NCBI GenBank assembly: GCA_964016885.1
Contig: OZ024743.1
Location: forward strand, 342,054,001 to 342,118,000
Direction: 5' to 3'
Source of the DNA: Eledone cirrhosa
Lineage: Eukaryota
DNA length: 64,000 nucleotides
The notes under the pieces are model-generated. The model worked only from the letters and a program-made list of their open reading frames with translations. It searched no databases and had not been told where the DNA came from. Positions 7,819 through 60,278 of this stretch are shown in pieces; within the stretch, counting starts at the first letter, position 1; every line of letters begins with the position of its first letter. The position numbers were made by a program, and so were the translations under genes.

Positions 7819-8889
7819 CATATGTCGAAATACATAGAAATATATTAAACCAAGGATGGAATGAATCTGCACGTGATATTTGTGAAATACACACGTATAT
7901 ATATGTATATATCTGACACCACATTAACTAAATGTTGTTCTCCTTACTTATGACGACGAGCTGGGATTGAAAGAAATATAGCTGCTACAATTGTTAATAA
8001 AACGCAACGTTGGTTTATGTATTCCTTGAATCATCCTATTAAGTGGTCGGTGTGATCATGGTTCGAATGTTTTCCAATATAGTTCTACTGTAAGAACAAA
8101 AGCCTTTATAGAAACAATAGCACTTAGTGAATTGGCTTATACTGTTTTGAGCTCTTTAAAAATATGATGCAAAGTGGCATGATTTATGATTAAACATTTT
8201 AGAAATACATTTAACATGCTCAAGAAAATTCTTTAGATATTAACTTTGATTATCCATACACGTAAAGACAATTCCAGAACGCTAAATGCAGTGTTGAGTG
8301 TTTCACGTGTTTCTTTTTTGCTATCTCTGTGTATATCTCTATGTATATCTCTTTCCTGGTGCGTTGCTGTAGGTAAGGCATTTCTAATAGGTCTATCAAC
8401 TTATTGCTGGGTATTTTGTTTTTCTGCGTCTAGATTTATTGAGAGAAACCTTGGTCAATCTCCGTCAACATTTTAAGAAACAGTATTATTGTTCCAAACA
8501 TTTCAATGCCAAACTATTGATGTATATATTCCTGACGAGAAAGTTTGAGGAAGGGAATTCGGGAATCTAAAAATTTCGTTAGCGTTTCAGTAATTTAGAT
8601 CTTTTTATTTGTGTTTATGGAATGCTTGCCAATTAATAATGCTTGAGCTGATAGGAGCCTAATGTTGTGAGTACGTGTCCAAATCTCTATCGAGTTTCCA
8701 AGTAGATGACGATTATTAAATATGCGTGAATAAGTACACGCATGTCATATACGCTTCCATAATTTGAATTTTTTCAGTTTTTGGTTGGGTCAAAATACTT
8801 TTTGTCAAGGACGTTCTGCCCACACTGTATGTTTTTAGTGTTAACATGAGCAGGGAATTTTAGCTATATATACAGTTTCTCATACCACC

Positions 8890-10130
8890 AACGGCCATAA
8901 CCTTGATAAATTCCGTAAAGATTTACTCAATACTTTTGCTAATCTTAACCTTAAAATTACTATAGATACGAACCATACCAATGCTAAGTTTCTTGACATT
9001 AATCTTGATATGCTTACTGCCTCTTTTAAACCTTATCATAAACCTAACGAAAATCTTAGATATATACACAAAGAGTCTTGCCATCCTGCTATAGTTTTTA
9101 AAAATCTTATTCCCAACATTAGCCGTAGGATTTCTACCTTATCTTCGTCTCTAGACATTTTTAACAAATCCCTTAATAACAGCGGCTCTACAGAACACAT
9201 TAAATATTTACCTACTCCTCCTCCTAAAACTAACCACAATAATAGGAAAAGGAAAATTATTTGGTTTACACCCCACCCCTTCTCTTTAACTATCAAAACT
9301 AATGTAGGAAGGAAATTCCTTGACCTTTTAGACAAACATTTTCCTCCTAATCATAGATATTATAAGATATTTAATAGAAATGTAGTTAAAATCAGTTTTT
9401 CTTGTTGCCCATCAATGAGGTCTAAAATCACCAATTCTAATCGTACGAGAATAAATCCGGCATGCATTTGCAGAAAGCCGGATGAATGCCCATTACTGTG
9501 CAAATGTAATACCAAATCCGTTGTATATGAGGCCAAAGTGACACCTTTAATTAACAACCAGCCAGCCAGGAGTGAACGATATGTTGGCATGATTCAGGAC
9601 AAGTTCAAAACCAGGTATTATGCACATGTCGCTTCTTTTAAACACTCTGATAAAAGAACAGCAACGGCTCTCGCAAATAAGGTGTGGGAATTCAAAGATA
9701 AAAACATCTCGTACTCTATGGATTGGTCTATTTTAGACCATTCCAGGGAATACCAAAGGGGCACAAAGAATTGTTCTTTGTGTACCACTAAAAAATTTAG
9801 GATTCTACAAAACTTGAAAGCCACTTCAACTTGCCTGAACCCCAAGACCGAGATCTTCAGATGTTGTCCTCACCTCAAATCACATCTGAGCTGTAACTGG
9901 ATTGACATTCCTACGATGACTCAACCACCTTTAACTTCTTCTCTGCTCTCTACGCTTTACATCCACTACGATTTGTATTACTTTCTGTACTTTTATATTC
10001 TTTTTCTCCCTTATCTCCCCTTATATTTAAACTTTTTCCTATGTTATTTATTTTCCTTATTCCCCCCTACTTTCTACCTTACCCTTTACATACCCAGCTT
10101 TTTTATTTATAGATATTTATTTCTGTGTGT
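8890..10130 (+). mobile_element. 5'-truncated Penelope-like element (RT C-terminus + GIY-YIG), probably Naiad-type
   Basis: FLDINLD, FKPYHKPN..LRYIHKESCHP, RKIIWFTP, CICRKPDECP (CxCx5C), SVVYEAKV...RYVGM, CSLC; followed by a pyrimidine-rich 3' UTR. Confidence 0.85.
9010..9930 (+). pseudogene. Penelope-like RT/GIY-YIG endonuclease ORF remnant
   Basis: First ~300 aa of ORF 9010-10368; the remainder is read-through into UTR and microsatellite. Confidence 0.8.
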
Positions 10131-10255: not shown

Positions 10256-10489
10256 ATATATATGTGTATATAATTATATATATCTGTATGCATAATTACA
10301 TACAGAGTGATTTTATGTTTATTTTCATGGATTATTTGCTCCATGAACGTGTTGAGTGCTCTAAATAAGCTATAAACATTTATACCTTTATCTATTTATT
10401 TATTTAATTATTATTTGTCGTATTCCCAAATATTTGTTTACCCCTTCCAACTTTTATTTTCATATATATATAATATTTATGTATTTTCT

Positions 10490-10895: not shown

Positions 10896-11340
10896 AATAT
10901 ATATGCAGTAAGAAACACAGTAAACCGTGTGTCTAATATTACAAGGGTTGAAAAACCACATTTGTTTGAAATATTTAACCAAGAAGCAGACAGAATGATA
11001 AAATGAAAATATATTATTATACAAACCGCCTCAATAACCATTATATCTCTCGGACAGATTATCCCTAATCTGTTTCGCCCTGAGTGTGTTTGTAACAGAT
11101 AATCCTTAGGCATCATCAGCGAGAGAATCTGATTAAATGCAACAAAGACTATGTACCAACGTTCACACAGAAAGATGGTTAAATATTTCAAACAAATGTG
11201 GTTTTTCAACCCTTGTAATATTAGACATACGGTTTACTGTATTTCTTACTGCATATATATTATTAATCGGCTCAGTATTTTATACTTGGAGCTTAATAGT
11301 TACAGGGTTTCAATTGGAGTTTTAACTCTAATTTTCATTT
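10896..11340. mobile_element. Non-coding hammerhead-bearing element with ~85-bp inverted repeat (10896-10981 / 11177-11260)
   Basis: Arms are reverse complements; ribozyme lies in the spacer; TA-rich flanks. Confidence 0.7.
11046..11126 (-). ncRNA. Type I hammerhead ribozyme
   Basis: TCTCTCG-CTGATGA-tGCC..GGC-GAAA-CAGATT(agggat)AATCTG-TC^-CGAGAGA: 7-bp stem I, long stem III, GUC site. Confidence 0.9.
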
Positions 11341-11359
11341 ATATATATATATATATATA

Positions 11360-12560
11360 CGTAGGAGGTGAGTTTTATTGTAGCAACAATAAAACAATGC
11401 AAATATCGGATAAGTAGCACTCCACAGTTTATAGGACTGGAGTATAAATAATATAAGATCAAAATATGGTTAAAAGAGTTTCAAGTATTTTATTATGCGC
11501 ATTTCAAAAACAAGTATCATCATGGGATGATATTTGCATTCTCATCAGATAAAATAGGGAAACATGATATGAAGCTTAAAAAACACTTGTGAGCAGTGAA
11601 GTTTTAAATCAACATATGAAAAATAAAGTAAGATGGATTTATGAAAATGGGAAAAAAAGGAGGGGCGTAGGAAATGGTAAGGAAGAGGAAGAAAGAAAAT
11701 AAAGGATGAAGTGGGAGGAGTATAGGAAGGAAGGATGAGAGAGGAGGAGAAATGAGTGATACAGAGAGAAAAAACATTGTTTCACAGAGAGAAATTAAAA
11801 AAACCATTGGAAGATAATAGATAATTTAAAAAGATTTTGAAATTAAAAGTTAATGAGGTTTATGGATGTTGATGTTTATGATTAAAGAAAAGGAATTAAG
11901 AATAGTATTAAAGGTTTATATATTGAAGGGTTTAATAATATGTGCGAAAAAAAAATTTATTAATATGTATTATTAGAATAAAAATATTAATGATATTAAG
12001 GATATATGTGAAAGAAGGAGAAGAATAAATGAATTATGAACTTAAAGGAATTAGTTAGGGTTTCAGTTTGTTTTTATGTATTGTAATATGTAAAAGTAAA
12101 TAAAAGGTTTAAAACGAGCGCGAAAGGAGAGAAGAAAAAAGAAAATTTAAGGAAGCCCCTTTTTTAAGTAAAAAGAAATTCAAACACTCATATATGAAAA
12201 AAACAACCTGAGCCCCCCCCCTTGTTTGAAGGACTTTGTAACGCGAACTGCGAAATTTATTATACTTATTGACCAACCAATCAAATTACTTCTCTAAAAA
12301 CCTGGCGTTTCGAGCCACTCTTTTCCATATAAAACAAGTAACATTCAAAGACCAACCAGATGTGAGAAAAACCACAGAACCTCCATCTCAACTCTACTTT
12401 TGAAAAGCAGAAGAACTGCGAAACCGGTAAAGGAACCAAATACATAGATATATTTTTTTTTAAATAAGACTCCAGTTGCATTTTCTATTTCATCTTTTTT
12501 TCTTTATACTTTCACTCGTCTAGGACACCTCGGTTATTTTTCATTTTGTAAAAAAAAACC
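11360..12560 (-). mobile_element. Degenerate Penelope-like 3' end / pseudo-LTR
   Basis: Purine-rich tract mirroring a PLE 3' UTR, ELRWR-like endonuclease remnant at 12281-12481, hammerhead near the 3' end. Confidence 0.55.
11486..11556 (-). ncRNA. Type I hammerhead ribozyme (short palindromic stem III)
   Basis: TATTTTAT-CTGATGA-extended stem II-GAAA-TGCGCA-TA^-ATAAAATA. Confidence 0.8.
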
Positions 12561-12721
12561 CACTTTCTGATATATATTGAATTATATATATATAATTATA
12601 TATATATATATATTAGAATTGGTGTTCTGAAATAGCAAATGCGAAACAGGGCTCTGTCGGCTTCGAAATGCTTTTAATTAAGCATACAGTGTATTGCAAA
12701 ATACACTATATATACATTCAT

Positions 12722-12774
<53 letters not shown>

Positions 12775-12781
<7 letters not shown>

Positions 12782-13438
12782 GACGTAAAATAAGAAAATT
12801 AAAAAAATTAAAAATTAACTTACTTACTAAAATTTTCACTCCAACTAATTAGTTTCTGTAATGGGATAAAGATAGTTACGCAATGTAACCATCGAGAATT
12901 CATTACGTCATCAGGGGGTCTATTCTCAGCTAAGTCCCCAGACAATGCGCGGACACTAGGGACTCATATAAAAATAATAATTTGGTGGATGGAACAGCTA
13001 GCAGGGACTGAATTCCATAGCACTGAAAAAGTTCATTGTCTCTGGTCAAGTGGCAGATTCTAAAGATTCAATCACGTGACACTGAGGCTAGGCAGTAGGA
13101 GTGGGAGGGTATTATGACAAGAGCCTACTACCACTACGATGAATTAGCAGTGGATTTGGCAAGTTTGCTCAACAAATAAATAATTTGGAGTTAAATATAG
13201 AGAATTAGTATATTTACCAACATATGCGTAGAGATGTACACTAATGCTAGCAAATACATAAGTTATGTCATAGTACCTAGGTGGTTCTATGCAGGGGGAT
13301 GCAGAACAATTATATGAAAGACGTAAAATAAGAAAATTTTAAAAATTAAAAATTAACTTACTTACTAGGTACTATGACATAACTTATGTATTTGCTAGCA
13401 TTAGTGTACATCTGTACGCATGTGTTGGTAAATATACT

Positions 13439-13447
<9 letters not shown>
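12775..13447 (-). mobile_element. Non-coding hammerhead element: ~538-nt unit, partial direct repeat, then inversion
   Basis: 12778-12829 repeated at 13316-13367; 13198-13281 inverted at 13366-13447; (TA)n/(CT)n flanks. Confidence 0.75.
12838..12919 (-). ncRNA. Type I hammerhead ribozyme, slightly degenerate
   Basis: ACCCC-CTGATGA-cGTAATG..CATTACa-GAAA-CTAATTAG-TT^-GGAGT. Confidence 0.7.
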
Positions 13448-13510
<63 letters not shown>

Positions 13511-13590
13511 TAAGTTTTCATAGATATAAATTCCCTTTTCTTCTGAGTGTTGGCTTGTTCTGGCCGTTAATACTTCTTGTCTCTTTTCTT

Positions 13591-13631
13591 GCTCTGATGA
13601 GTCCCTATTAATGGGACGAAATACTATCAGC
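13591..13631 (+). ncRNA. Minimal type I hammerhead ribozyme
   Basis: GCT-CTGATGA-GTCCC(tattaat)GGGAC-GAAA-TACTA-TC^-AGC, followed by AATAAA; in a ~170-bp island between (TA)n tracts. Confidence 0.82.
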
Positions 13632-13697
13632 TAATAAAGACTTTTGATGTATTGAAGGCTTCTTTGTTTACTTTTTATAATATATATATATATATAT

Positions 13698-14002: not shown

Positions 14003-14127
14003 AATTAAAATACTAGAGTCTGTTTGAGTTAAACACCCTCTACATATTATAGAAATGACAGTATAGGATATAGCTCAATGTAATTAAACAGAGCCGAAGA
14101 ATTTTAAATTATAATTGTTATAATATA

Positions 14128-14254
<127 letters not shown>

Positions 14255-14399
14255 TGTTATACTTTGGGAGGGTCATGTTGCCAATAAGAAACACACGCAC
14301 CAGTTGATTTTACTTCAATTTATTATAATAAATGTATAATAAATTTATTAATTTCTGGTTGGTTGGTTGGTTCCACAACCAGATAGTTGTTTATATATT

Positions 14400-14442
14400 G
14401 TCATAGTTCTTTCGTCACACACTATGTGACCTCTTCAGTGAC
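14400..14442 (-). ncRNA. Minimal hammerhead ribozyme
   Basis: GTCA-CTGAAGA-gGTCACA..TGTGAC-GAAA-GAAC-TA^-TGAC. Confidence 0.75.
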
Positions 14443-15038
14443 TAGGGATTCCTTTCTTTGTTTCTGTGCCTCTCCTTTGTTCTGTCCTACGCCATTTTGT
14501 TTCTGTGTGTGTGTGTTGTGTGCTCAGTCTGCGCATGCGCCACATCCGGATGTCTGTGTGTGTTTATGTTCATTTATTTATTTGTTTATTTACATGTTAC
14601 TGGTTGGTTGTTTGTTCTATGTGTGTGTGTGCTTTCATTTTGTCCTTAATTGTAAGTTGTGATGTTGCTGTTCCACTCATATTTTCTATTTAATTTCGGT
14701 TGTAATTCTTTTATGTCTACACACAATTTTGGTTGTAATTCTTTTATGTTTATTGCCTTTGTAATTTGTCTAAACATTGCGTCTTTTCTGTGTGTAGATT
14801 CTATTTTTATTTCTATGTTCTCCAATTTACCCTTGTGTTCTATTTTAGCATGTTGGTAGAGTACAGATGATTCTTTACTATCTTGAAATAGAATCTACAC
14901 ACAGAAAAGACGCAATGTTTAGACAAATTACAGAGGCAATAAACATAAAAGAATTACAATGACCCTCCCAAAGTATAACAATATCGGTTTCAACACACGA
15001 TTTCAGATAAAGAATCTTGCTAAACAAATTCAGAAACG

Positions 15039-15081
<43 letters not shown>

Positions 15082-15330
15082 TGTATGTGTATAAAAGGTA
15101 AACAGAAATAACAATACAATCGGTACAGTATATCGAAGGGATATATTTGGTTAACGCTTGATATAGTAGGAAGATATATATATATATCGTTTCTGAATTT
15201 GTTTATCTGAAAACGTGTATTGAAACCGATATTGTTATGCTTTGGGAGGGTCATGTTGCCAATAAGTAACACACATTTATTATAAATTTCCGGTTGGTTG
15301 GTTCTATAACCGGACGGTTGTTCATATATT

Positions 15331-15373
15331 GTCAAAGTTCTTTCGTCACACATTATGTGACCTCCTCAGTGAC
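15331..15373 (-). ncRNA. Minimal hammerhead ribozyme (CTGAGGA variant)
   Basis: Paralogue of 14400-14442. Confidence 0.72.
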
Positions 15374-15564
15374 TGGGGATTCTTTTGTTTGTTTTGTGCC
15401 TCTCCTTTGTTCTGTCTTATGCCATCTTGATTTTGCTTGTCTTTTGTGTGTCTTTTAATACCGTCTTTTTATGCCATCTTATTTTTGCGTCTTTTTGACA
15501 CACAAAAACAAGATGGCGTAAGACAGAACAAAGGAGAGGCACAACACAAAGAAAAGAATCCCCA

Positions 15565-15607
15565 GTCACTGAAGAGGTCACAGAATGTGTGACGAAAGAA
15601 CTTTGAC
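15565..15607 (+). ncRNA. Minimal hammerhead ribozyme
   Basis: GTCA-CTGAAGA-gGTCACA(gaatg)TGTGAC-GAAA-GAAC-TT^-TGAC. Confidence 0.75.
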
Positions 15608-16452
15608 AATATATGAACAACCGTCCGGTTATGGAACCAACCAACCAACCAACCGGAAATTTATAAATTCTTAAATTTATAAATTTAATTTATAATAAAT
15701 TGGAGTGAAACAACTGGTGCGTGTGTTTCTTATTGGCAACATGACCCTCCCAAATCATAACAATATATATATATATACCCAGCAAATACATGTTTCTCTG
15801 TCGTTGATTAGATGATATACACACCTCTGATGAGTGTTGAATTAGATCCGAATGTCAATTAAACATGTTTTTTTTTCAATTTACAGGTAAATTCGTATTT
15901 TCTGGCATGTTTACATGTCCAGATATTAGATATGTGCATATAATTATATACATATCTTCATAATATATAGTGGCTACTATAACGGATTATTACTTCCAGC
16001 CTGTTAACTTCCAAATTACTCATTTAAAGTAGGTTTTTAACTTCGGTGATATGTTCCGATTTATGGATTAATATGGTATAAAGTATTATTTTTTAGGCTC
16101 CGATGAAAGTACTAACACACTCATTTAACTATTTTTAATGTACTAATATCGTTTTATAATCTATAGCTAAACATCAATTTGCATTATTACTTTGCAGTAT
16201 TTAAAACAACTTATCAGCCATTAAATATATATGTACTCATAAATCTTTGTTGTTCTTTCCAGCATTTCAAATATGATTTTTTGATCTGCTTATAAAACAG
16301 TTGTTAAACTAACTCTTTTTCCATGTAGTCGCATGGCTCGGTAGTCTCGCAATCCATATGGATTGAGCACACTAACTTTCTGTCTACTGGCTTGTCATCT
16401 GTATACCTAATCCCTTTTCTCCCTTCCTGATTAGCTTACTTGCTTTTTACTT

Positions 16453-26739: not shown

Positions 26740-29700
26740 TATATAGATATGTTTCTTTTATTTGCCACCAGGGCATCAAAAGTGGGACAAGTACAAGGGG
26801 GGAGTTTACACAAAAAGGCGTCCTCAATAAGGAGGAGGCAATAACAATATATAAAAATAATATATAACAAAAAATAAAATTTATAACTAATCCTCAATAG
26901 AGAGGAGGCGCCTTGGGGGTCGCACACACCCCCGAAAAAAGTGTGCAACCCTTTTCCTCAGGAACACAGAGAGGGGGTGCTCCCTCGTTCCTTCCTCCTT
27001 TCCACCTACAGGCTTATGTAAAGAGAAGGCCCATTCACACGGGCCATTCTCGCCACTTTCACCCACCTTTCATAAAAACGACTGGGGTGGAGCACCTCTC
27101 TCTCCATCCTGATCCTTCTTCCGAAATGATATCGGAAGAAACGGACCAGTTGTTGGCCAGAGAGAAAGGTGCCTGACCTCAGTCCTTTCAGACGCGTCCA
27201 CCATACAACTTCTTTCACCATGGCTATTACGCACAGAAACACCGCCTCTCCTTCATATTTGAAGGGGGGAGGTGGCTTGATCATTACAATAGACTCGGTG
27301 GTCAACCGGATCGGTCCCACCCTTGACATCAGTTGTTCGACATAGCCCCACAGATCGGCTACGCCCGAGCAGTGTACCAATGCGTGTGCAACGGTTTCCT
27401 CGTCGCACACGCATCTGGGACAGATCTTTTTGGCGGGGTGCCTACCCGGGCGCCCGTGTCTGTAGAGCTTTTCTCGAACGGGTAGAGCCCCTCGGTAGCA
27501 CTGCCAGGCCAGGGACTTCTGGAAGTTGTCCATAGGTCCCGGGCTGAATGTCCTACCGAACAGGCTGGCCAGTTCGTCCTCCTCCATGTCTAGGGCTTCT
27601 CCGAGGGCGTCGTCGCACCTGCTGCGTACCAGCCCTCTATAGAATGTTGCGGTGGAGTCTCCACTGATAGCCGGATCCGCCTGCCAGAGGGCGGTGAGCG
27701 CCTGGGCACACTCAGTGTGCCAGGCGCCCAGTTTTCTCTCTCTTTGCTTGACCCAGGATTTCAGCTCGGTGAGTGAGACGAGTCTGGGAAAGGTTCGTCT
27801 CACAAACGAGGCCCACACCGGTTGACCGGTGAGGAATACGTAGAGGTGCCGTAGCCTTAATGCGTGTTTACGCATCATTAGCCACGGCATCCCCAGCCCG
27901 CCTTTCGAAGGGTGTTGACAGCAGATGGATCTCCTCACCATAGGAGCCCGCCTCTTCCAAAGGATTTGTAAGAGCGCCGCTCCATCTTGGCGAGGGTTTC
28001 CCTTGGGCAGGGCACTACGGTCAGGTGGTAGTAGATGACGGACGCTATATAGGTGTTCGCCACCTCCGCCCGACCTTTCAGGGATAGTTTGCAACTGGCC
28101 CACTTCTGGGTCAGTGCAAACACCCTGTTCGTAACCTCCGCCCAGTTTTTCTCCACCTGGATGTCCGGTCCGAACCAGACCCCGAGCAACTTCACCGGGC
28201 CCTCCGTCCAGCGTCCGTCGACGCCATCGGAGGGCATCTGTCTGCCCCTCCACGTGCCGAGTTGCAAACCGATCGACTTGTCCCGGTTCAGCTTAGCTCC
28301 TGTGAACCTTTCGTACTCCTCCAGTAATGTGCCGACCGCCTCGATTTCGGAGGCCGTCGACACCATTACTGTCACGTCATCGGCGTAGGCCGACACCGCT
28401 TTCCGCAATCCCGGTTCCAAAGAGATACCCTGCAACTACTCCAACTTCCGCAGTAGTGGCTCGAGAGTCAACACATACAGAAGGGAGGAGAGAGGGCACC
28501 CTTGTCGGATGGACCGCGCGATTTTGAACGGCTCCGAGAGGTAGCCGTTCACCTTGACCCTAGAGCAGATGCCGCCGCTGTGCATAGCAGTGATCCAGCC
28601 CCTGAAAACGGGTCCGAAGCCTGCCGCCGCTAGCACCGCATCCAGGTAACCATGGTCGACCCTATCGAACGCCTTAGATTGATCCAAGTTGATCAGAGCC
28701 CCACCAAAGCCGGGTTCGTTCCCAACCCTCTCTATGATGTATCGCATGAGGTGGAGGTTGTCATGGATGGACCTGGACGGGATAGCGCATGTCTGCGCAT
28801 CTCCCACCAGGTTGCCCACGACAAGCGCCAACCTCTTTGCTAGCACCTTGGCCAAAATCTGTAACTCTGTATTTAGCAGAGTTATGGGCCTGAAGTTACT
28901 TATTTAGTCCCCCTTGTTCTCGTCCTTCCTCACTAGCGTGACTACGCCCTTGGTCACAGTACAGGGAATTATCCCGTTCTGTTGCCAGTTGCAGTAGACC
29001 GCCTCGAGGAGATCGGGGAACAAGTCCGGCATAGCTAGATATAATTCGTAAGGAAGACCATCGAGACCCGGGGATTTGTGTTTGCCGCATTGGCCCAGCA
29101 CGTCCTCTATCTCAGCGGCCGAAATCGGCTCCTCGCAGCCCTTCGCCTCCCTGTCCGAGAGACGCGGCAGGCCGTCGAGGTATGGACCGAAGTCCACATT
29201 CCCAACCGGCTCCTCGCCCCTTCCGAACAGTCGGGCAAAGTGCCTTTGAAAGGCCTCACACATCTGCTTAGGCTCAAGAATCCCCGTCCATCCAGGTCTC
29301 GCAAAGACCGGATGGTGGATTTAGTTCCACTGTTGGCCTCTGTCCCGCGGGCCCAGCTAACAGCTTTGGTCCCCTCGTTCCCTAGAGCACGTATTTTACT
29401 TCGGACAACGCAGCCTTCGTGCTTCGCGTCGAAAAACTGGCTCAAAGCCGTTCTCGACGCAAGCACTCTGGCCACGTCGCCGCTTCTAATTGCCTCTTCT
29501 ACTCTATCTATTAGCTCCCTTTCCTTCCTATTCCTATCCGCAGCTAGAACCTTACTAAATTCTATCGAGACTACTCTAATCTCTCTCTTTAGAGATACCC
29601 ACCACCTGCTGTTGACGATCGCTCCAGTCAACCGTTCCTTAACTAACGTACTAATCCGATCCCTGTAAGTTCTACTTGCCGGCAAGGACAAGTTGAGCTT

Positions 29701-29794
29701 CCAGTAACCGGGGCCCTGTCTATGCGTTCTATCAAGGTTGACCATGCAGGTCACCAACTTGTGGTCTGAATAGCCAACCATGAGCATTTCTGGA
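26740..29794 (-). mobile_element. Tx1/L1-clade LINE, 5'-truncated ORF2 with 3' UTR
   Basis: SDHKLV..GPGYWKLN, KSPGLDGLP, DQSKAFDRVDH, IRQGCPLS, SAYADDVT, CPRC..ETVAHALVHC across frameshifted ORFs; GC-rich; candidate TSD CAACT. Confidence 0.93.
27006..29787 (-). pseudogene. Tx1-like APE-RT-CCHC ORF2, frameshifted
   Basis: ORFs 29107-29787, 28904-29263, 28436-28855, 27935-28435 and 27006-28253 tile one polyprotein. Confidence 0.9.
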
Positions 29795-30530
29795 CAACTT
29801 AAAAGTCCCTGTCCTTATTTGAGGAGGAAGAACTCATAGCCATAAATTGAATTAGACTAAATTCAGCTGCTGGCCCTGATGGATTCCCAGTAATCCTCGT
29901 AAAAATATGCAAACGAACATTATCAATACCACTCTTCCAAACTTCACTTGCAAATCGTAACCTACACGGAGAGCTAAAGAAAGGCACGATATGTTATGGA
30001 TGGAGCCATGGACATCTTACCCTGATTTAAGAAAGTATTAGTAAAGAAAATTAGTATGACGTGGGCCATAGAAAATTAGCTTGCGGCCTAGCAAAGGCGT
30101 TTGAGAGCCCTATGTTAAACTGATCAACAAGTAGTCAATGACAACTGTATTAACTGCCATTAGACGCCCTCCAGTGGGATGTTACACTCACTACAGAATC
30201 AAGGTGATAATGTTCGGCGATTACTTAGCAAGATGAACGTCGGCGATCCCCCGCTACCGAGCACCCACTTAACCTTTTATAAAACGGCTTCAGAGGACCT
30301 TATTGATAGGCACTGCCTCGCTCGATCTATTAAGGACCTCTTAAATCTGAGACATCTACATGGTGTGGGTGTAGATGTTTTCAAGAAGCATCTCGACTTT
30401 CTACTAAACAACATCCCAGATGAATCCACAGCTCGTGGTGAAGTACAATTAAGGGCAGCAACGACAAATGTCCTTTTACATCAATGGCCAACCAAGGTGT
30501 GCCGTCTCTACAGTTTATGGTGTATATAAG
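29795..30530 (+). mobile_element. CR1-group LINE continuation and 3' end (RT largely deleted or replaced)
   Basis: NSAAGPDGFPVILVKIC at 29860-29910; LRHLHGVGVDVFKKHLDFLLNNIPDE..RAATTNVLLHQ at 30345-30490. Confidence 0.72.
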
Positions 30531-32090: not shown

Positions 32091-32251
32091 ATATAATATA
32101 ATATAATATAATATAATATATATATATATAGAGAGAGAGGGGGGTATGAGGTTAACAGAACAGTGATTTGTGGATCACATTATAGTCTGTCGATTGTGAA
32201 GCAGATAAAAAGAAGCGCTCAACGACTTGTGTAAATGGTACAAGACGGAGC

Positions 32252-32635: not shown

Positions 32636-32857
32636 TATATATATATATATATAGTATTAAGGATACTATTTATGGTTATGTATATACTAAAACCTTTTAT
32701 AGTTATATATTTATTATACCCTTAATAGTGAAAGACAGTAATTTATTACTATCTTATTACCAGTAAGATAAATAGCTCAATGTAACAACATCAGTTGTTT
32801 TACAGAGCAGTTATATAGAGATTACATGAAACAAAGTTCTGTTTAAATCATTTATCT

Positions 32858-42015: not shown

Positions 42016-42361
42016 TGGTTCATGTCTCGATGCAACGTAATACAGAGAGTTATGTATGTTAGTTGTTTGAAACGTGATTCTAAAACGTTTACATTTTGCT
42101 GGAAATGTTGCAATGATTTGTGGCTAAAACCGGCTGCTTTCCTAGAAATCTGATTGGTTGTCCTCTATTTTCAGCCCTTATTGGCTAAATCTGCGTTTAA
42201 TTTAACTAAATACCGCCACTACGCCCCTATTTTATTTTAAATAACTATAACGTGAAAGACTTAATGGAACAGCCAAAGTTAAACCACTTCAGAAGAAAAG
42301 AACAAGAACAACTCCTAATACTACTAATTCAAATCACGTTAATCATCAGAAGAACAGAAAA

Positions 42362-44193
42362 ATGAGTTCTCAGTACTACAAGGATTTGGTTGAGGAACAA
42401 CTGAAAGACACAACATTCTATCATGAAATACCGTCAAATATAGACCACAACATCATGAAGAAGATCAACAACCTGGCTTCAAAATACCACAACTCATTTA
42501 CTGATAAGGAAAGAGACTACATCACCAATTTTGAGCCGAAACCCAGCAACCTGTATGGCCTACCGAAAGTTCACAAGTCAAAAGAAATACAACTGGCAGT
42601 AAGAGAACAAAACAGTGAGTACATTAAATTATTACACCCAAAAGACTTAAAACTTAGACCTATTATAGCTGGTCCAACATGCCCCACTCACCGTCTAAGC
42701 AATTTTGTTGACATTATTTTGAAACCACTATGTATTCACATACCCAGTTTCATCCGGGATGATATCGACTTCCTGTCCCATTTTCCCAAAACCACGGAAA
42801 CGAATTCACTTCTACTCAGTTTTGATGTGGTAAGCCTTTACACCAACATTACACATGATTTAGGAATAAAGGCAGTTAAATACTGGGTGGAAAAACATAG
42901 AGAAGTGATTCCCATTAGATTCACAGCGCCATTTATATTAGACGCAGTTAAACTTATTCTGGAAAACAACACTTTCTTCTTCAATGGAAAGAATTACATC
43001 CAAATTAGAGGCACAGCGATGGGAACGAAGTTTGCTCCCGTTTACGCGAACTCTGTAATGGGATACTTAGAACAACAACTCTACCAAGAAATAGAGGAAA
43101 ATATAGTACTGACTTTAGAAAGTACATTGAAAAATCTTGGAAGAGATACCTTGACGACTGTTTCATCATCTGGACAGAATCTCTAGATACTCTGGATGAG
43201 TTCAATATCCTCCTGAATAACCTACACCCATCTCTCCAATTCACAAAAGAGATGAGTAGGACCAAATTACCATTCCTAGATATAATGATAATCAAAAACG
43301 ACACCACCATTACCACGGATATATATTATAAACACACAGACACCCATCAATATCTGAATTTTAAGTCGTGCCATCCACCTCATACAAAACGCAACATCCC
43401 ATACTGCCTAGCCAGAAGAATTTGTACCATTGTAGAAGATACGAATACCAGGTACAAACGCCTAACAGAACTAAGATAATTTTTGCTCAAACAAAAATAC
43501 CCATCTCTACTTATAGAAAATGGCATACAGCGGGCTATAAAAATACCTATACAACAACTTAGAACAACCCAAGGAAGAAGAAACCAAGAACTGGTCATAC
43601 CATTTATAATGACACACAACCCATGTCACCAGAATATATTCAACACTGCCAAAGCAAACCTACCGATCACTGCTCAAAGTAATGAATTAAAAGGCTTAAT
43701 CACAGATCGATCTTTGACTCTTAGTAAAAGACAGCCAAAAAATTTGAAGCAACTGCTAACAAAAGCAAAGTTTGACCTTAACAACAAAGACCAATCATTC
43801 ACTGTATCTAAATGCAATGATAATCGATGCGGCACATGTCAATCCATACACGCCGGTCAATATATGAAAACAAAAACTGGAAAAATATTCCCAAATGCAA
43901 ATATGAACTGCAAAAGCAGAAATCTAATTTACTGCATTAAATGCCCGAATTGTGAAGAACTATATGTCGGTCAAACTGGAAATGCACTATCGGAACGTGC
44001 ACGGGTACACCGTCAACAAATCAGAGACCCAAATGTCCGTCAGATACCCCTAAGAGGCCACCTGGCAACATGTGGTCAGGGAATATTTATAATATTCCCA
44101 TTCTACACATTACACAGCCCAAGTGAAATCAAGAGAACAATCAAAGAAAAGAATTTTATTGATAAATTCAAACCCAAGCTAAATGAACAATAA
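42362..44193 (+). pseudogene. Penelope RT + GIY-YIG endonuclease ORF (frameshift ~43100, stop 43477-43479)
   Basis: ORFs 42362-43186, 43252-43479 and 43483-44193. Confidence 0.9.
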
Positions 44194-44567
44194 TAACGCC
44201 TAGGGGTATTACTTCTACTACCACTATGACCACGACCACTAACAACAACAACAACAACAATAATAATAATAATAAAAGTGATGTTGATGGTGATGATTAA
44301 TAGAAAATGCTATTTTCATCATTTCAAAAAGCAAAACAATTGATACGTTGGGTATGACTATTGGACGTTAGCATGCTCAACCAGCCGTGACGCTTAAACC
44401 AATCAGCTGTAGTAATTCAGTGAAACTACACACTGATTGGTCGAAATACAGTTTACAGGGCTTTGCATTCTGGAGCCACTTTTCTCTGTATAAAATGTAT
44501 AAAAGGTAGTAAATTTACCCATCTCATTACAGTTGAAAATTGCAAACTCGACTGTCACCACATATCA

Positions 44568-44606
44568 TGAACCTGAAGATTGCGAAAGCATGAAAGTACT
44601 TGTTCA
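44568..44606 (+). ncRNA. Minimal hammerhead in the Penelope 3' pseudo-LTR
   Basis: TGAAC-CTGAAGA-tTGC(gaaa)GCAt-GAAA-GTAC-TT^-GTTCA. Confidence 0.78.
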
Positions 44607-44779
44607 ATTAACACTTATAATTTAATATTCTATCATACTATTTCATTATAATACCATATTATATATATTTTAAAGGATTGTAAATAAAACGAGTAAATCA
44701 GACAAAGTTGGAATTCCTCTTATTAATATAATCTTCTATACACAATCATACACACCCGTGTGTATTTACCTATCTATAT

Positions 44780-46660: not shown

Positions 46661-46802
46661 CATATATACATATATATAAATATATCAAGATAAGCAGAAC
46701 AAGTAAAATTCAACCAATTTTTCAAAATAAATCAAAATTAATATACAATTAAAATTAATCAAAATTAAAAAATATAATATAAATATTAACCTATTCAAAT
46801 GG

Positions 46803-46880
46803 CCCTAACTGTACAGTTTCACGATGCAAAACATTAGATATCACGTGGATATTAATGGAAAAGCAACGATCATCAGAGAA
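46803..46880 (-). ncRNA. Type I hammerhead with extended stem II
   Basis: TTCT-CTGATGA-tCG.TGC...GCA.CGt-GAAA-CTGTACAG-TT^-AGGG. Confidence 0.75.
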
Positions 46881-47549
46881 GCATCTTGCTGTACTAGGGT
46901 TAAAAACCCCAGGAACGACAAAATATATGACCTCACTCCAACTAATACAGGTCTGAAAGGTCGTGAAAATGACCCGTAAATACATTGGTGTATAGTGAAG
47001 GCGGGAAATCATAGACTAGCCGTCTATGATCGCTACCAAAAAAGATTTTTAACAACTAAATAGAACGACAGGTTTTTTCTCTACATACTGGAGAATGTTG
47101 AATATATCTGAGGGTACAATGTACCCCCGGAAATATATAGTGTGTCTATGATTTAAGGTGGTTCTATGGTAATAATTTGATATACCAGAACTTAATATCA
47201 AGATAAGCAGAACAAGTAAAATTCAACCAATTTTTCAAAATAAATCAAAATTAATATACAATTAAAATTAATCAAAATTAAAAAATATAATATAAATATT
47301 TACCTATTCAAATGGCCCTAACTGTACAGTTTCACTCTCCAGTATGTAGAGAAAAATCCTGTCGTTCTATTTAGTTGCTAAAAATCTTTTTTGGTAGCGA
47401 TCATAGACGGCTAGTCTATGATTTCCCGCCTTCACTATACACCAATGTATTTACGGGTCATTTTCACGACCTTTCAGACCTGTATTAGTTGGAGTGAGGT
47501 CATATATTTTGTCGTTCCTGGGGTTTTTAACCCTAGGACAGGAAAATGC

Positions 47550-47626
47550 TTCTCTGATGATCGTTGCTTTTCCATTAATATCCACGTGATATCTAATGTT
47601 TTGCATCGTGAAACTGTACAGTTAGG
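47550..47626 (+). ncRNA. Type I hammerhead (inverted copy)
   Basis: Same motif on the + strand. Confidence 0.72.
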
Positions 47627-47659
47627 TAAATATTTATATTATATATAAATATATTATAT

Positions 47660-48596: not shown

Positions 48597-48815
48597 ATAT
48601 ATATATATATATATAAATGGAATAGAATGAAACGAAATTTCATTTCTCACTCTTAGTACGGCACTTACTTAAATGTAAATATGTATGTATGTATACGTAC
48701 ATACATATATGTATACAGACGTACAGTAGTATGTATATATATACATTCATGCACACATAACATGCATAGGGAGAATATATACTTTCAGACGTTCAACCAT
48801 CTGGCAGGAAGGTAT

Positions 48816-48858
48816 ACGATGCTGACGATAGCTAATAAGATTGAAACTAGTACATCGT
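48816..48858 (+). ncRNA. Minimal hammerhead, copy 1
   Basis: ACGATG-CTGACGA-tagctaataagatt-GAAA-CTAG-TA^-CATCGT. Confidence 0.75.
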
Positions 48859-49265
48859 TCCTGTGTCAGTGTTGAACAAAAAGGTGACGTGGTTGCCTAA
48901 ACAATGTACGGTGTAATTCAGGCTGTTTGTTTGTTTACAAAAAAACAAACCGAGCATTATAATAAATGTTCGGTAAACCGATACGTGCATATATACATGT
49001 GTGCATGTATGTATATATATACATACTACAGTACGTCTGTATACATATATGTATGTCTGTATACATACATACATACATACTTACATTTAAGTAAGTGCCG
49101 TACTAAGAGTGAGAAATGAAATTTCGTTTGATTCTATTCCATTTATCGTTTTCATTGCGCCCAGCTGACTGAACTCACTTCATATGCAAATTAAGTTGCT
49201 CAGCCGTTAATACGCATAGGGAAAGTATATACTTTCAGACGTTCAACCTTCTTGCAGGAAGGTAT

Positions 49266-49308
49266 ACGATGCTGACGATAGCTAATAAACTTGAAACTAG
49301 TACATCGT
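49266..49308 (+). ncRNA. Minimal hammerhead, copy 2
   Basis: Same motif exactly 450 nt downstream. Confidence 0.75.
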
Positions 49309-49418
49309 TCCTGTGTCAGTGTTGAACAAAAAGATGACGCGGTTGCCTAAATTCGGGCTGTTTTTTGTTTACAAACAAACAAACCGAGCATTATAATAAA
49401 TGTTCGGTAAACCGATAC

Positions 49419-49459
<41 letters not shown>

Positions 49460-49543
49460 CATGTATGTATATATATATACATACTACTGTACGTCTGTAT
49501 ACATATATGTATGTACGTATACATACATACATACATACATACC

Positions 49544-49575
<32 letters not shown>

Positions 49576-51385: not shown

Positions 51386-51485
51386 TATATTGTATTGATT
51401 TTTATACATTAAATTTTGCTCTGATACTTACATAGAGCACTCTTCATTTCTATGACCTTTTCTGTTTGCAACGGAATTTTCAATA

Positions 51486-54139: not shown

Positions 54140-54620
54140 GTTTTGCAACCCTTTTGATATGAAATCGTGTGTCGAAACAAATATTGTTATACTTGGGAAG
54201 GGTAATATTGCTATAATATTGCCAGAAATAATAACAGAACACCCTCACTGTTTGGTTTGGGTTGGTTTTCGCTTTTGTATCTTTTATATCTCAATAGTTA
54301 GTTTATTTGGCAATCAATGTTTATCATTGATTAACCAACGGTTAAAAATACAGATATAAATATATATATATATATATAGCCTATTAATTTTGGCGTAAAC
54401 TTTACAATGGGAGGAAACAAAAAGTACCACTGATGATGTGGCAGATGTGTGACGAAAGAACTTTGATATTTATATCTGTATTTTTTACCGTCGGACAATC
54501 AATGATAAACATTGATTGCCGAATAAATCAGCTATGGAGATATAAAAGATACAGAAGCGAAAACCAACCCAAACCAAACAGTGAGGGTGTTCTGTTATTA
54601 TTTCTGGCAATATTATAATA
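54140..54620. mobile_element. Inverted-repeat element related to the 14250-15770 hammerhead family
   Basis: 54213-54362 inverted at 54467-54617; CTGATGA..TGTGACGAAAGAACTTTGA at 54430-54467; attgttatacttgggaagggt end motif. Confidence 0.72.
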
Positions 54621-57029: not shown

Positions 57030-58883
57030 TTTAATAATAATAATAATGATTTCATTTATTTGCCACAAGGGCCGACATGTAGGGGATAATACAAAGACAC
57101 AGACAGTGGGGGTTTACAATAAGGTCGAGTAAAAATGCGCAATGGCAAGAGTAATTTAACAATAAAGATATACATATTTAAAATAAACTATGCATAAATG
57201 TAACAAAGTAAATTCCACTATGGGGGGGACTCAGGGGTGACTCAGGTACCCCACCAATCCTGAACCACCCTGATCTTCAGGGAGAGCACCCCTCTCCTCA
57301 AATAAGCTACCCTATAGGCGCATGGACAGAGTAGGCCCATTCACCCCGGCCATTCTCGCTACATTCATCCACCTTTTAGCAAATGTACTGAGGCGGTAGC
57401 ACTTCTTTCTCAACCCTAACCTTCCTTTCCAGATGAAACTTGAAGAAGTTGATGAGGAAATGGCCGAAGTGAAAAGTGTGTGTCTTCAGTCCTTTCAAAC
57501 TGGTCCACCATATAACATCTTTCATAACTGCCTCCAGACCGAGGAAAACTGCCTGCTTTTCATGGCCAAAGGAACGCGGCGGGTCAATATTCACTATGGA
57601 CTGTTCGACATAACTCCACAAGTCAGTAATGCACGGACATTGAACAAGTGCATGCAGAACAGTTCGTCGCTCTGTGCGCATCTCGGGAAGGTCCGTCTGA
57701 CAGCCTTTCTGCGACTGTAGAGTTTATCCGGAACCGGCAGTGAGCCCCCCCCCCCCCCTCCCGGTAGCACTGCCAAGTGAGGGATTTCTGGAAATAGTCC
57801 ATCGTCCCCGGCTGGAAAGTAAAGTCCTGCAGAACAACTGGTCAGTTCAACTTCGTCGAGTCCCAAAGCTTCTCCGAGTGAGTCATTGCACTTCCCCCCA
57901 GTAATCCTCTATAGAACTCGAGAGTGGAAGTTCCACTGATTGCATTGCCTGCTTGGTAGAGGGCAGTGTGTGCCTGGCAACATTCCAGGTGCCAGTCACC
58001 CAGTCTTGTTCTCTTGAGGACCCAGAACTACAGCTCAGTCAAAGAAACGAGCTGCGGAAAGGCCCGTCTGATAAACGGCGACTACACCTGTTCACCGTTT
58101 AGGCAGAATATCGGAAGATATCGCAGCCTCAGAGAATGTATGCGCATCATTAGCCACGGCATGCCCAGCTCTCCGCGTAGAGGATGCTGACAGCAGATGG
58201 ACTGCCTCACCAACGGAACTTGTCCTCTCCACAAGAATTTGAAGAGGCGCCGTTCTAACTTGGCGAGGCGCGGATGAGGGCAAGGTACGACGGTCAGGCG
58301 GTAGTATGACGGACGCAATGTACGCATTCGCCACCTCCGCGCGACCTTTCAGTGATAGCTTCCTCGCAGCCTATTTTTGAGTGACACTGGCTACCCTGCT
58401 CGGTACCTCTCCCAATTCTTTTCACCTGGAGGTCTGGTCCGAACAAAACCCCGAGCAACTTTACCGGTCCGTCCGTCCAGCGCCACACCACTCTGTTTGA
58501 CGGCATGGACTTGCTTCTCCAGGTTCCGAGCTGCAAGCCCACCGACTTTTCCGGGTTAAGTTTGGCTCCTGTCAACCTTTCATATTCCTTCAATAAGGTG
58601 CCGACCACCTCGATTTCTGAGGTGTCTGACACCATCGCAGTGATGTCGTCGGCATAAGTCGACACAGACTTTCCACCTCCCTGTTCGAGCGGGATGCCGT
58701 GCAACAGCTCCAGCTTCCGCAGTAAAGGCTCGAGAGTCAATACGTACAGAAGGGTAGAGAGAGGGAACCCTTGACGGGAGAGCCGAAACGGTTCCGTGAA
58801 GTGGCCATTAACCTTGACCACCGAGCAGGTGCTGCTGTCCATTGCAGCGATCCAGCTTCTGAAGACAGTGCCGAAGCCAGGGA
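57030..58883 (-). mobile_element. Second Tx1/L1-clade LINE, 5'-truncated, with (TTA)n tail
   Basis: STYADDIT, NPEKSVGLQLGTW, SICCQHP..GELGMPWL, HALVQCP; homologous to 26740-28640. Confidence 0.9.
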
Positions 58884-59893
58884 ACGTAGGAGGGAACGTA
58901 GGAGGGCCTGCGATGGGGCACCTGGAGAGGCAGATCCATGCCATCCAGCGGACCGGTTTAATTGCTCTGGACCACCAGATGGACAAAAACTGGGACAAAG
59001 TGACGAACAGACTGACCAATTTCACCCAGCAATGGGTTGAGAGAAAGCTGTCCATGAAAAGAAGAGCGGATATGGCAAGCGCGTACATCACGTCCGTTAT
59101 CCACTACCACCTAAACGTTGTGCCTTGTCCAAGACTTGGTCTAATTGCCCTGGAGCGTTTACTGCTCCAAATCTTGAGCAATGGACGCGTTCCGATGGAC
59201 ACGTTGTCCATCTTCTGTCAACACACACTGCGTGGGGGACTGGGAATGCTGTGGAGGATAATGCACAAACATGCACTGAAGCTACGAGATATCCATCTTT
59301 TCCTTAAAGGTGAACAGGCTTTCCTCAAAGTCCCTGGCTTCGGCACTGTCTTCAGAAGCTGGATCGCTGCAATGGACAGCAGCACCTGCTCGGTGGTCAA
59401 GGTTAATGGCCACTTCACGGAACCGTTTCGGCTCTCCCGTCAAGGGTTCCCTCTCTCTACCCTTCTGTACGTATTGACTCTCGAGCCTTTACTGCGGAAG
59501 CTGGAGCTGTTGCACGGCATCCCGCTCGAACAGGGAGGTGGAAAGTCTGTGTCGACTTATGCCGACGACATCACTGCGATGGTGTCAGACACCTCAGAAA
59601 TCGAGGTGGTCGGCACCTTATTGAAGGAATATGAAAGGTTGACAGGAGCCAAACTTAACCCGGAAAAGTCGGTGGGCTTGCAGCTCGGAACCTGGAGAAG
59701 CAAGTCCATGCCGTCAAACAGCGTGGTGTGGCGCTGGACGGACGGACCGGTAAAGTTGCTCGGGGTTTTGTTCGGACCAGACCTCCAGGTGGAAAGAATT
59801 GGGAGAGGTAACGAGCAGAGTAGCCAGTGTCACTCAAAAATAGGCTGCGAGGAAGCTATCACTGAAAGGTCACGCGGAGGTGGCGAATGCGTA
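58884..59893 (+). mobile_element. Tx1 fragments: diverged piece 58900-59330 plus inverted duplicate 59331-59893 of 58320-58883
   Basis: Near-identical ~560-bp reverse-complement arms. Confidence 0.88.
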
Positions 59894-60278
59894 CATACAT
59901 ACATACACACATACATACATACATACATACATACGTACATACAAACATCATGGCTGCCCCCTCGTTGTCGAGTATGGCCATTGCACGAGGAGAAAGAAAA
60001 AAAAAAAAAGAAAAAGAAAAAATAATAATAATAATAAATAAATAAAAAGAAAATAAAAAAAAAAAATTTAAAAAATAAATAAAAAAACATATATATATAT
60101 ATATATACATACACACACACACACACACCCACACACACACTCACACATACATATACACACACATACATTAATAACAATAATAATAATAATAACAACAATA
60201 ATAATAACGACAACAACAATAATAATATACATATATATATACACACACACGCACACACACACACACACACGATAGCAA

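Follow-up and report, generated by a model that had tools for sequence, protein, structure and literature searches.

A 538-nt non-coding element in a 64,000-nt stretch of the Eledone cirrhosa genome (contig OZ024743.1; the window, meaning this whole stretch) is probably a non-autonomous, retrozyme-like passenger of a Hydra-clade Penelope-like element (PLE), with hairpins that position the reverse transcriptase. This reading draws on the layout of the insertion, its hairpins, the offsets of insertion ends from hairpins and an association of such hairpins with Hydra-type genes, all of which we observed. As an element it belongs to a known class and is unremarkable there; what seems to be new is the hairpin as a putative clade-wide start-site mark. 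The parts of the insertion are:

12720..12772, either strand: (TA)n target microsatellite, left flank (read from the sequence)
12773..13310, minus strand (RNA sense): 538-nt non-coding monomer (from the repeat period)
12773, minus strand: monomer 3' end, the proposed primary reverse-transcription start, site 1 (from the repeat period)
12773..12842, minus strand: U-rich tract, 70 nt, 53% U, from the hammerhead cut to the 3' end
12837..12919, minus strand: type I hammerhead (descriptor scan)
13167..13191, minus strand: hairpin 2, ACUC/GAGC with a UU bulge, site 2 (model trained on outside hairpins)
13279..13291, plus strand: shared 13-mer, the 3' arm of hairpin 1 plus CACCU in the opposite-strand reading
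13284..13307, minus strand: hairpin 1, GUUC-UGCA-loop-UGCA-UA-GAAC (fold z -3.06)
13311..13367, minus strand: partial tandem, 57 nt, a second copy of the monomer 3' end
13365..13446, plus strand: inverted arm, 82 nt, a copy of 13199-13280
13447..13508, either strand: right flank, (CT)n(TA)n (read from the sequence)
46682..47644, minus strand: sister element, with a 513-nt monomer, hammerhead, 141-nt repeat and inverted arm

The preliminary description of this locus had proposed a hammerhead monomer in a tandem-plus-inversion layout, and both parts hold. Our own descriptor recovered the type I core on the minus strand, the partial tandem matches the monomer at 55 of 57 positions at period 538, and the inverted arm is the reverse complement of 13199-13280 (80/82 identical). 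The tandem ends 13 nt short of the next hammerhead cut; the inverted arm covers the interval between hairpin 1 and hairpin 2 and is joined at 3 shared bases. The architecture recurs, as had also been stated, at 46.7 kb, where the sister has a 513-nt period, a 141-nt repeat (140/141 identical) and a 294-nt inverted arm (288/294). The A-rich tract described beside the ribozyme is a U-rich tract on the RNA strand (53–54% U in the two elements). Immediately past the hammerhead cut, the sister's inverted arm (47623-47644) is missing the 14 nt that separate a pair of short direct repeats.

PMC8557442 describes a PLE insertion as a partial tandem accompanied by an inverted 5'-truncated copy and, optionally, by a 30–40-bp tail, and PMC3846280 shows the same layout. 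Since the 538-nt element carries this hallmark, it is an ordinary product of PLE machinery. It has no gene: its longest ATG ORF is 33 aa, four Hydra-type protein pieces gave no tblastn match to it at E≤1, and it lacks reverse transcriptase (RT), CxCx5C linker, GIY-YIG, RWK and DKT, so it is not an autonomous Hydra-clade PLE. The monomer is strongly self-paired (circular fold z -5.5, 30 shuffles). The family has one copy within the 64-kb window, and the (TA)n target masks any target-site duplication. Part of the element is contained in 12 of 17 listed sequencing runs (9 studies), the best listed run holding 0.41 of its words and 4 rows exceeding 0.2; none of the runs listed as containing it was an RNA run, and the reading of the element does not draw on these runs. 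The immediate neighbour of the element, beyond the right microsatellite, is a separate minimal hammerhead PLE end (13510-13690, plus strand, with C3 at 13594).

The hammerhead of the element (C3 at 12914, minus strand) is predicted by the descriptor to cut after GUU at 12843, and has a long stem II with a C.A base, a palindromic stem III and a mismatch in stem I. That of the sister (C3 at 46876, GUU cut) has U.U at the stem II base, which is also known from axolotl. The type I descriptor found 17 motifs in the window, with a null mean of 0.47. No hammerhead family was among the 127 Rfam matches for the window at E≤1, most of them microRNA models on microsatellites, and the hammerhead at 12837..12919 is absent from the free minimum-energy fold. 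Several hammerheads of the window have a long stem II in which C.A, G.G or A.G takes the place of the closing G-C or U.U:

12914 (minus), 32527 (plus), ~32897 (minus), 48586 (minus), 49668 (minus), 51318 (plus): long-stem-II hammerheads with C.A, G.G or A.G closure

Animal retrozymes have been described as non-autonomous PLE derivatives of 51–972 bp (bioRxiv 10.64898/2026.07.22.740005, here the 2026 preprint). Like the non-LTR retrozymes of PMC7229834, the 538-nt element is an AT-rich, folded, non-coding monomer with a type I hammerhead and a head-to-tail repeat; unlike them, it comprises 1.1 units and adds an inverted arm. The preprint counts a copy as active when it has at least two units with a hammerhead in each, whereas this element has a single hammerhead in its 1.1 units. 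The likeness is one of DNA layout; retrozymes are further marked by linear and circular RNAs, self-cleavage and many copies in a genome. The text available for PMC7229834 and the preprint names no recognition element for the PLE enzyme.

The Hydra clade is marked by CxCx5C, RWK and DKT and targets (TA)n (PMC8557442). With it the 538-nt element shares the (TA)n target, the tandem with an inverted copy and the hammerhead near the 3' end; Hydra-clade hammerheads often have U.U and a palindromic stem III, and the tail is optional (PMC8557442). The unit is also arranged like a Hydra element, as hairpin, second hairpin, body, hammerhead and U-rich tract, but has a folded non-coding RNA where the gene would be. 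It differs from the clade in having no gene, a longer stem II, and GUUC/GAAC rather than GCUC/GAGC at the hairpin base.

The two elements had been said to share a 12-mer about 35–40 nt from the repeat junction in otherwise unrelated monomers, and the word had been read as a cis-signal for RT recognition, priming or processing. GGTGGTTCTATG indeed occurs at 13280 and 47157, with no other window site at ≤1 mismatch, but the match is actually 13 nt long, and its distance from the junction, 38 nt in the sister, is 31 nt in the 538-nt element. Nor are the monomers otherwise unrelated, for they also have in common the 5' arm of the hairpin and a second exact 14-mer (12836-12849 and 46933-46946). The 14-mer spans the hammerhead cut in the 538-nt element and, in the sister, precedes the hammerhead by ~60 nt; we set it aside as a further signal because these positions are not equivalent. 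Taken alone, the 13-mer is only modestly rare: its chance mean is 0.31, with two matches at one mismatch in 4 of 100 window shuffles, and among 3000 pairs of shuffled monomers, 71 had a 13-mer in common and 2 had at least two.

Read on the RNA strand, the shared word forms the 3' side of a hairpin with a bulge, GYUC[stem-loop]UN-GARC. Hairpin 1 begins 3 nt beyond the element 3' end, in tandem register, in both the 538-nt element and the sister; in both it has the 4-bp base GUUC/GAAC and the 2-nt bulge UA, and the upper stems, different in sequence, are paired. A U-A pair with the CACCU ending occurs in just 2 of 19 distinct hairpins, so a conservation test on the word itself would fail. The 13-mer is family-specific, and what stays conserved is the structure. 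The proposed cis-signal draws support from its position, 1–6 nt from insertion ends, and from its spread through Hydra-clade PLEs, but its conserved unit is the hairpin, not the 12-mer.

Hairpins of this shape recur across the window:

47161..47191, minus strand: sister hairpin 1, GUUC/GAAC base, other upper stem, 3 nt past the 3' end
51418..51438, plus strand: family C hairpin, top model match (E 3e-7)
11270..11292, plus strand: element F hairpin, 6 nt past a tail-less end
32217..32251, minus strand: element I hairpin, ~1 nt past a tail-less end
32775..32808, minus strand: element J hairpin, downstream of a degenerate hammerhead with C.A at the stem II base
14073..14094, minus strand: hairpin within a 120-nt insert flanked on either side by (TA)n, without a hammerhead
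11419..11443, minus strand: ACUC/GAGU hairpin downstream of a hammerhead-like core at 11548
8845..9912, plus strand: decayed Hydra-type PLE gene end with CxCx5C linker (34% identity, E 6e-62, to the protein of outside locus L307)

Our hairpin descriptors were widened twice after data inspection; with the widened form the window has 7 loci, where 300 shuffles gave a null mean of 0.24, and two of the 7 were additions, element J and the 120-nt insert. Families C, F and I carry the same shape with GCUC/GAGC after tail-less ends. In family C the hairpin lies 2–3 nt past two such ends (49571, 48497), and over the 538-nt element, the sister, C, F and I the offsets are 3, 3, 2 and 3, 6, and ~1 nt. Downstream of the decayed Hydra-type gene end lies a hairpin at 10338-10357, and the hairpin at 11419..11443 is followed by (TA)n ~55 nt later. 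A MAFFT alignment of the window hairpins did not follow their structure. In a 450-nt hammerhead unit of the same layout (48615-49545; 1.7 tandem copies, a 5' inverted arm and internal microsatellites) no such hairpin was seen.

A model built from outside hairpins only ranked family C, element I, the 11443 element and then hairpin 2 as its first four matches in the window. Hairpin 2 (rank 4 of 21, rough E 0.024) folds weakly, at -3.0 kcal/mol with an A.C mismatch. The model did not list hairpin 1 of the 538-nt element, that of the sister, or the F hairpin at E≤10. By descriptor and offset the 538-nt element carries a candidate for the tail hairpin of the clade; the model recovers hairpin 2 and misses hairpin 1. 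The inverted arm ends 3–7 nt before hairpin 2, the range depending on whether (CT)n is taken to have arisen from the arm by slippage, and therefore both insertion arms end just before a hairpin; the inverted arm also stops 4 nt from hairpin 1. The inverted arm of the sister ends in the U-rich tract with no hairpin behind. A possible second sister hairpin (UCUC/GAGA, UA bulge; 47070-47097, minus strand) lies where that arm begins; its fold is weak and the model did not list it.

Outside the window, we examined PLE loci on animal contigs binned into bacterial assemblies. Such contigs in G001, G004 and G009 (for example L307, L308, L309 and L345) abound in Hydra-clade PLEs, many of which are nested end to end in (TA)n. 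Evidence on the Hydra clade comes from three outside assemblies, most loci being from G004, related and non-independent. Across the 69,254 unique bases surrounding Hydra-type genes, a descriptor relaxed after inspection of the outside loci gave 21 hairpins where 1.6 were expected. A hairpin lay within 230 nt downstream of 15 of 38 hammerhead cores in Hydra-type loci, upstream of none, and on the other strand for two. Neptune-type PLEs were considered as partner and rejected: a hairpin followed 0 of 15 hammerhead cores (48 loci), and the best E of the outside model was 1.9 (17 of 48 loci). Tail-bearing ends may be rare in Neptune-type loci, which could account for a lack of hairpins there.

A narrow pattern search covered the ten assemblies behind some of the PLE loci. 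Among the matches listed, a full hammerhead lay upstream in 2 of 140 (138 loci), and the remaining matches are mostly chance; three near-identical G003 repeat copies and most G001 and G010 matches fall outside the 138 loci, and 27 matches lie beyond those listed. Both hammerhead-backed matches sit behind Hydra-type PLE genes. Nematis was rejected as the clade of these genes, since CxCx5C, RWK and DKT denote Hydra in PMC8557442. The gene start of L345 has the RWK and DKT motifs, and L345 also carries the CxCx5C linker, which is found as well in L319 and at 8845-9912 of the window. In L345 the gene end is followed by a hammerhead, then by two hairpins set 43 nt apart, and the start codon comes after the second.

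A script sorted 24 outside gene ends into 11 where a microsatellite comes first, 8 with a tail and hairpin arms, 3 with neither and 2 without a hammerhead core. Inspection by eye places a hairpin 3 nt behind a brief (AT)4 run in one of the 11, finds one of the 3 to be truncated within its hairpin, and adds a hairpin to one of the 2. Tail-less copies in three outside families stop 6, 3 and 5 nt before the hairpin, and tail-bearing ends in one family lie 5–6 nt before the second hairpin. Among 12 distinct outside hairpins (three assemblies), the four lower pairs are invariant and the upper stem changes on both sides in all 3 pairs, with 83 of 84 cells paired; two of these three upper pairs were forced by the selection of the hairpins, and the third, which was not, is paired in 11 of 12. 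The model of the 12 hairpins gave 8 strong new matches on contigs beyond the protein search, seven of which are followed by (TA)n 26–34 nt later.

The GUUC/GAAC base occurs in none of the 12 distinct outside hairpins, and because no autonomous element with GUUC/GAAC was found in those contigs, the Hydra partner is assigned by likeness only. Among six published Hydra consensus sequences inspected by eye, three carry the hairpin (two from sea cucumber, one from coral), one carries a variant and two are without; one begins with the same hairpin pair as L345. The main text of PMC8557442 does not mention a tail hairpin. In the literature covered, with most subscription papers and some supplementary figures outside it, we did not find the hairpin as a clade-wide start-site mark. 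The GUUC/GAAC hairpin with the CACC word was also sought in metagenome contigs and matched at least 120 loci, which we reject as chance in mainly prokaryotic DNA: of the 121 matches listed, 2 have a loose hammerhead core upstream and 6 have one on the other strand, and none of those listed has (TA)6 beside it. Viral contigs gave no PLE relatives with three queries.

If the 538-nt element is such a passenger, its RNA template would be circular or a multimer left uncleaved, since this copy reads past the hammerhead cut and continues for 1.1 units; the cut is crossed once by this copy and twice by the main arm of the sister. The Hydra protein would nick (TA)n and bind the GYUC[stem-loop]UN-GARC hairpin, binding by the reverse transcriptase being something we infer. 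DNA synthesis would start on A/U-rich bases 1–6 nt 5' of the hairpin, and because it begins on that side the hairpin would normally be missing from the end it specifies. The other target strand would be primed beside hairpin 2 to give the inverted arm, whose synthesis would halt at the foot of hairpin 1 before joining through the 3 shared bases. Two serial hairpins would thereby give two start sites and an optional tail.

Stated for the whole clade, we hold tentatively, and a little short of an even balance, that the bulged hairpin is the downstream start signal of Hydra-clade reverse transcriptases, one per site, that a serial pair makes the optional tail, and that non-coding RNAs carrying it become passengers. 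The GUUC/GAAC version would then mark the passengers of one enzyme subfamily. Because it lies a few bases past reverse-transcription start points, the hairpin is a good candidate for the handle by which a PLE enzyme is borrowed. LINEs and SINEs share 3' stem-loops, a small RNA structure that lets a non-coding passenger use its partner's reverse transcriptase; these sit upstream of the start, and each insertion contains a copy of them, whereas the hairpin here lies downstream of the start and is left out of the end that it marks. Another likeness is Poseidon PAc, where synthesis has two starts inside the RNA, on either side of the tail, and depends on downstream RNA (PMC11167929); the AT-rich target and a stem-loop at the start are further points in common.

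We think it unlikely, yet worth weighing, that the hairpin is real and clade-wide and acts at another step, as a DNA target of the GIY-YIG endonuclease, a stop for synthesis, or an element of transcription or translation in the 5' UTR, the fixed offset then resulting from cutting or trimming and not from priming. The endonuclease of Drosophila Penelope needed tail sequence on DNA (recounted in PMC11167929), the inverted arm halts next to hairpin 1, and the L345 hairpins fall just before the start codon. Nearly all hairpin pairs are Watson-Crick, so the data do not fix which strand folds; one G.U favours the RNA sense strand (10338) and one the opposite strand (hairpin 2). However, tail-less ends occur in (TA)n targets that lack the hairpin, so recognition of target DNA is not needed for them, a translation signal is useless to a non-coding unit, and the in vitro Poseidon data place the needed sequence on RNA, downstream of the start.

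We give little credence to a reading of the locus as a one-off or dead derivative of a Hydra terminal repeat, in which the two elements inherited the 13-mer from one ancestor and the GUUC/GAAC hairpin is a relic that drifts and no longer works as a signal. It would fit the one window copy with its one hammerhead, the poor cleavage suggested by the stem I mismatch, the C.A in stem II and the GUU site, and the second shared word, the 14-mer, at unrelated positions. Against drift, the change from C-G to U-A in the hairpin base is a double one with pairing preserved, the upper stems are paired in spite of their different sequences, and each of the two insertions stops exactly 3 nt short of the hairpin. 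The repeats, moreover, are 96–99% identical, which makes the insertions fairly young, and the C.A recurs in element J. Chance sharing of a word in a window crowded with AT-rich repeats is very improbable: the shuffles given above allow it for the word, but the same strand, the same 3-nt offset and a complementary 5' arm in both elements, together with the excess of window loci over the null, tell against it, and the enrichment outside and the published Hydra consensuses largely refute it.

Penelope-like reverse transcriptases are the closest relatives of telomerase. How a PLE RT picks an internal RNA start, why insertions come with or without the 30–40-bp tail and how retrozymes use the PLE enzyme are questions raised in PMC11167929, PMC8557442 and the 2026 preprint. 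A hairpin of 20–35 nt that keeps a fixed distance to the start, and occurs in published coral and sea cucumber consensuses as well as in this genome, makes these three questions testable, allows non-coding passengers to be matched with a PLE clade and is of use in annotating element ends.

Other elements of the window were noted in passing. The nearest named relatives of one window PLE protein are from bivalve molluscs. A decayed PLE at 42251-44640, with RT and GIY-YIG and a U.U hammerhead at 44573, is one we take from its motifs to be Neptune-type. Two hammerhead PLE-end families (14255-15762 and 54212-54617) carry a conserved tail of another kind, which opens, 2 nt after the tail-less end, with GTTTC and an AC-rich run; no stable fold was found in this tail, and its AC-rich run recalls the AC-rich start region of Poseidon. 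Non-LTR retrotransposon remnants lie at 58318-59896 and 27006-29814, one of them with a 566-nt inverted duplication of 99% identity.
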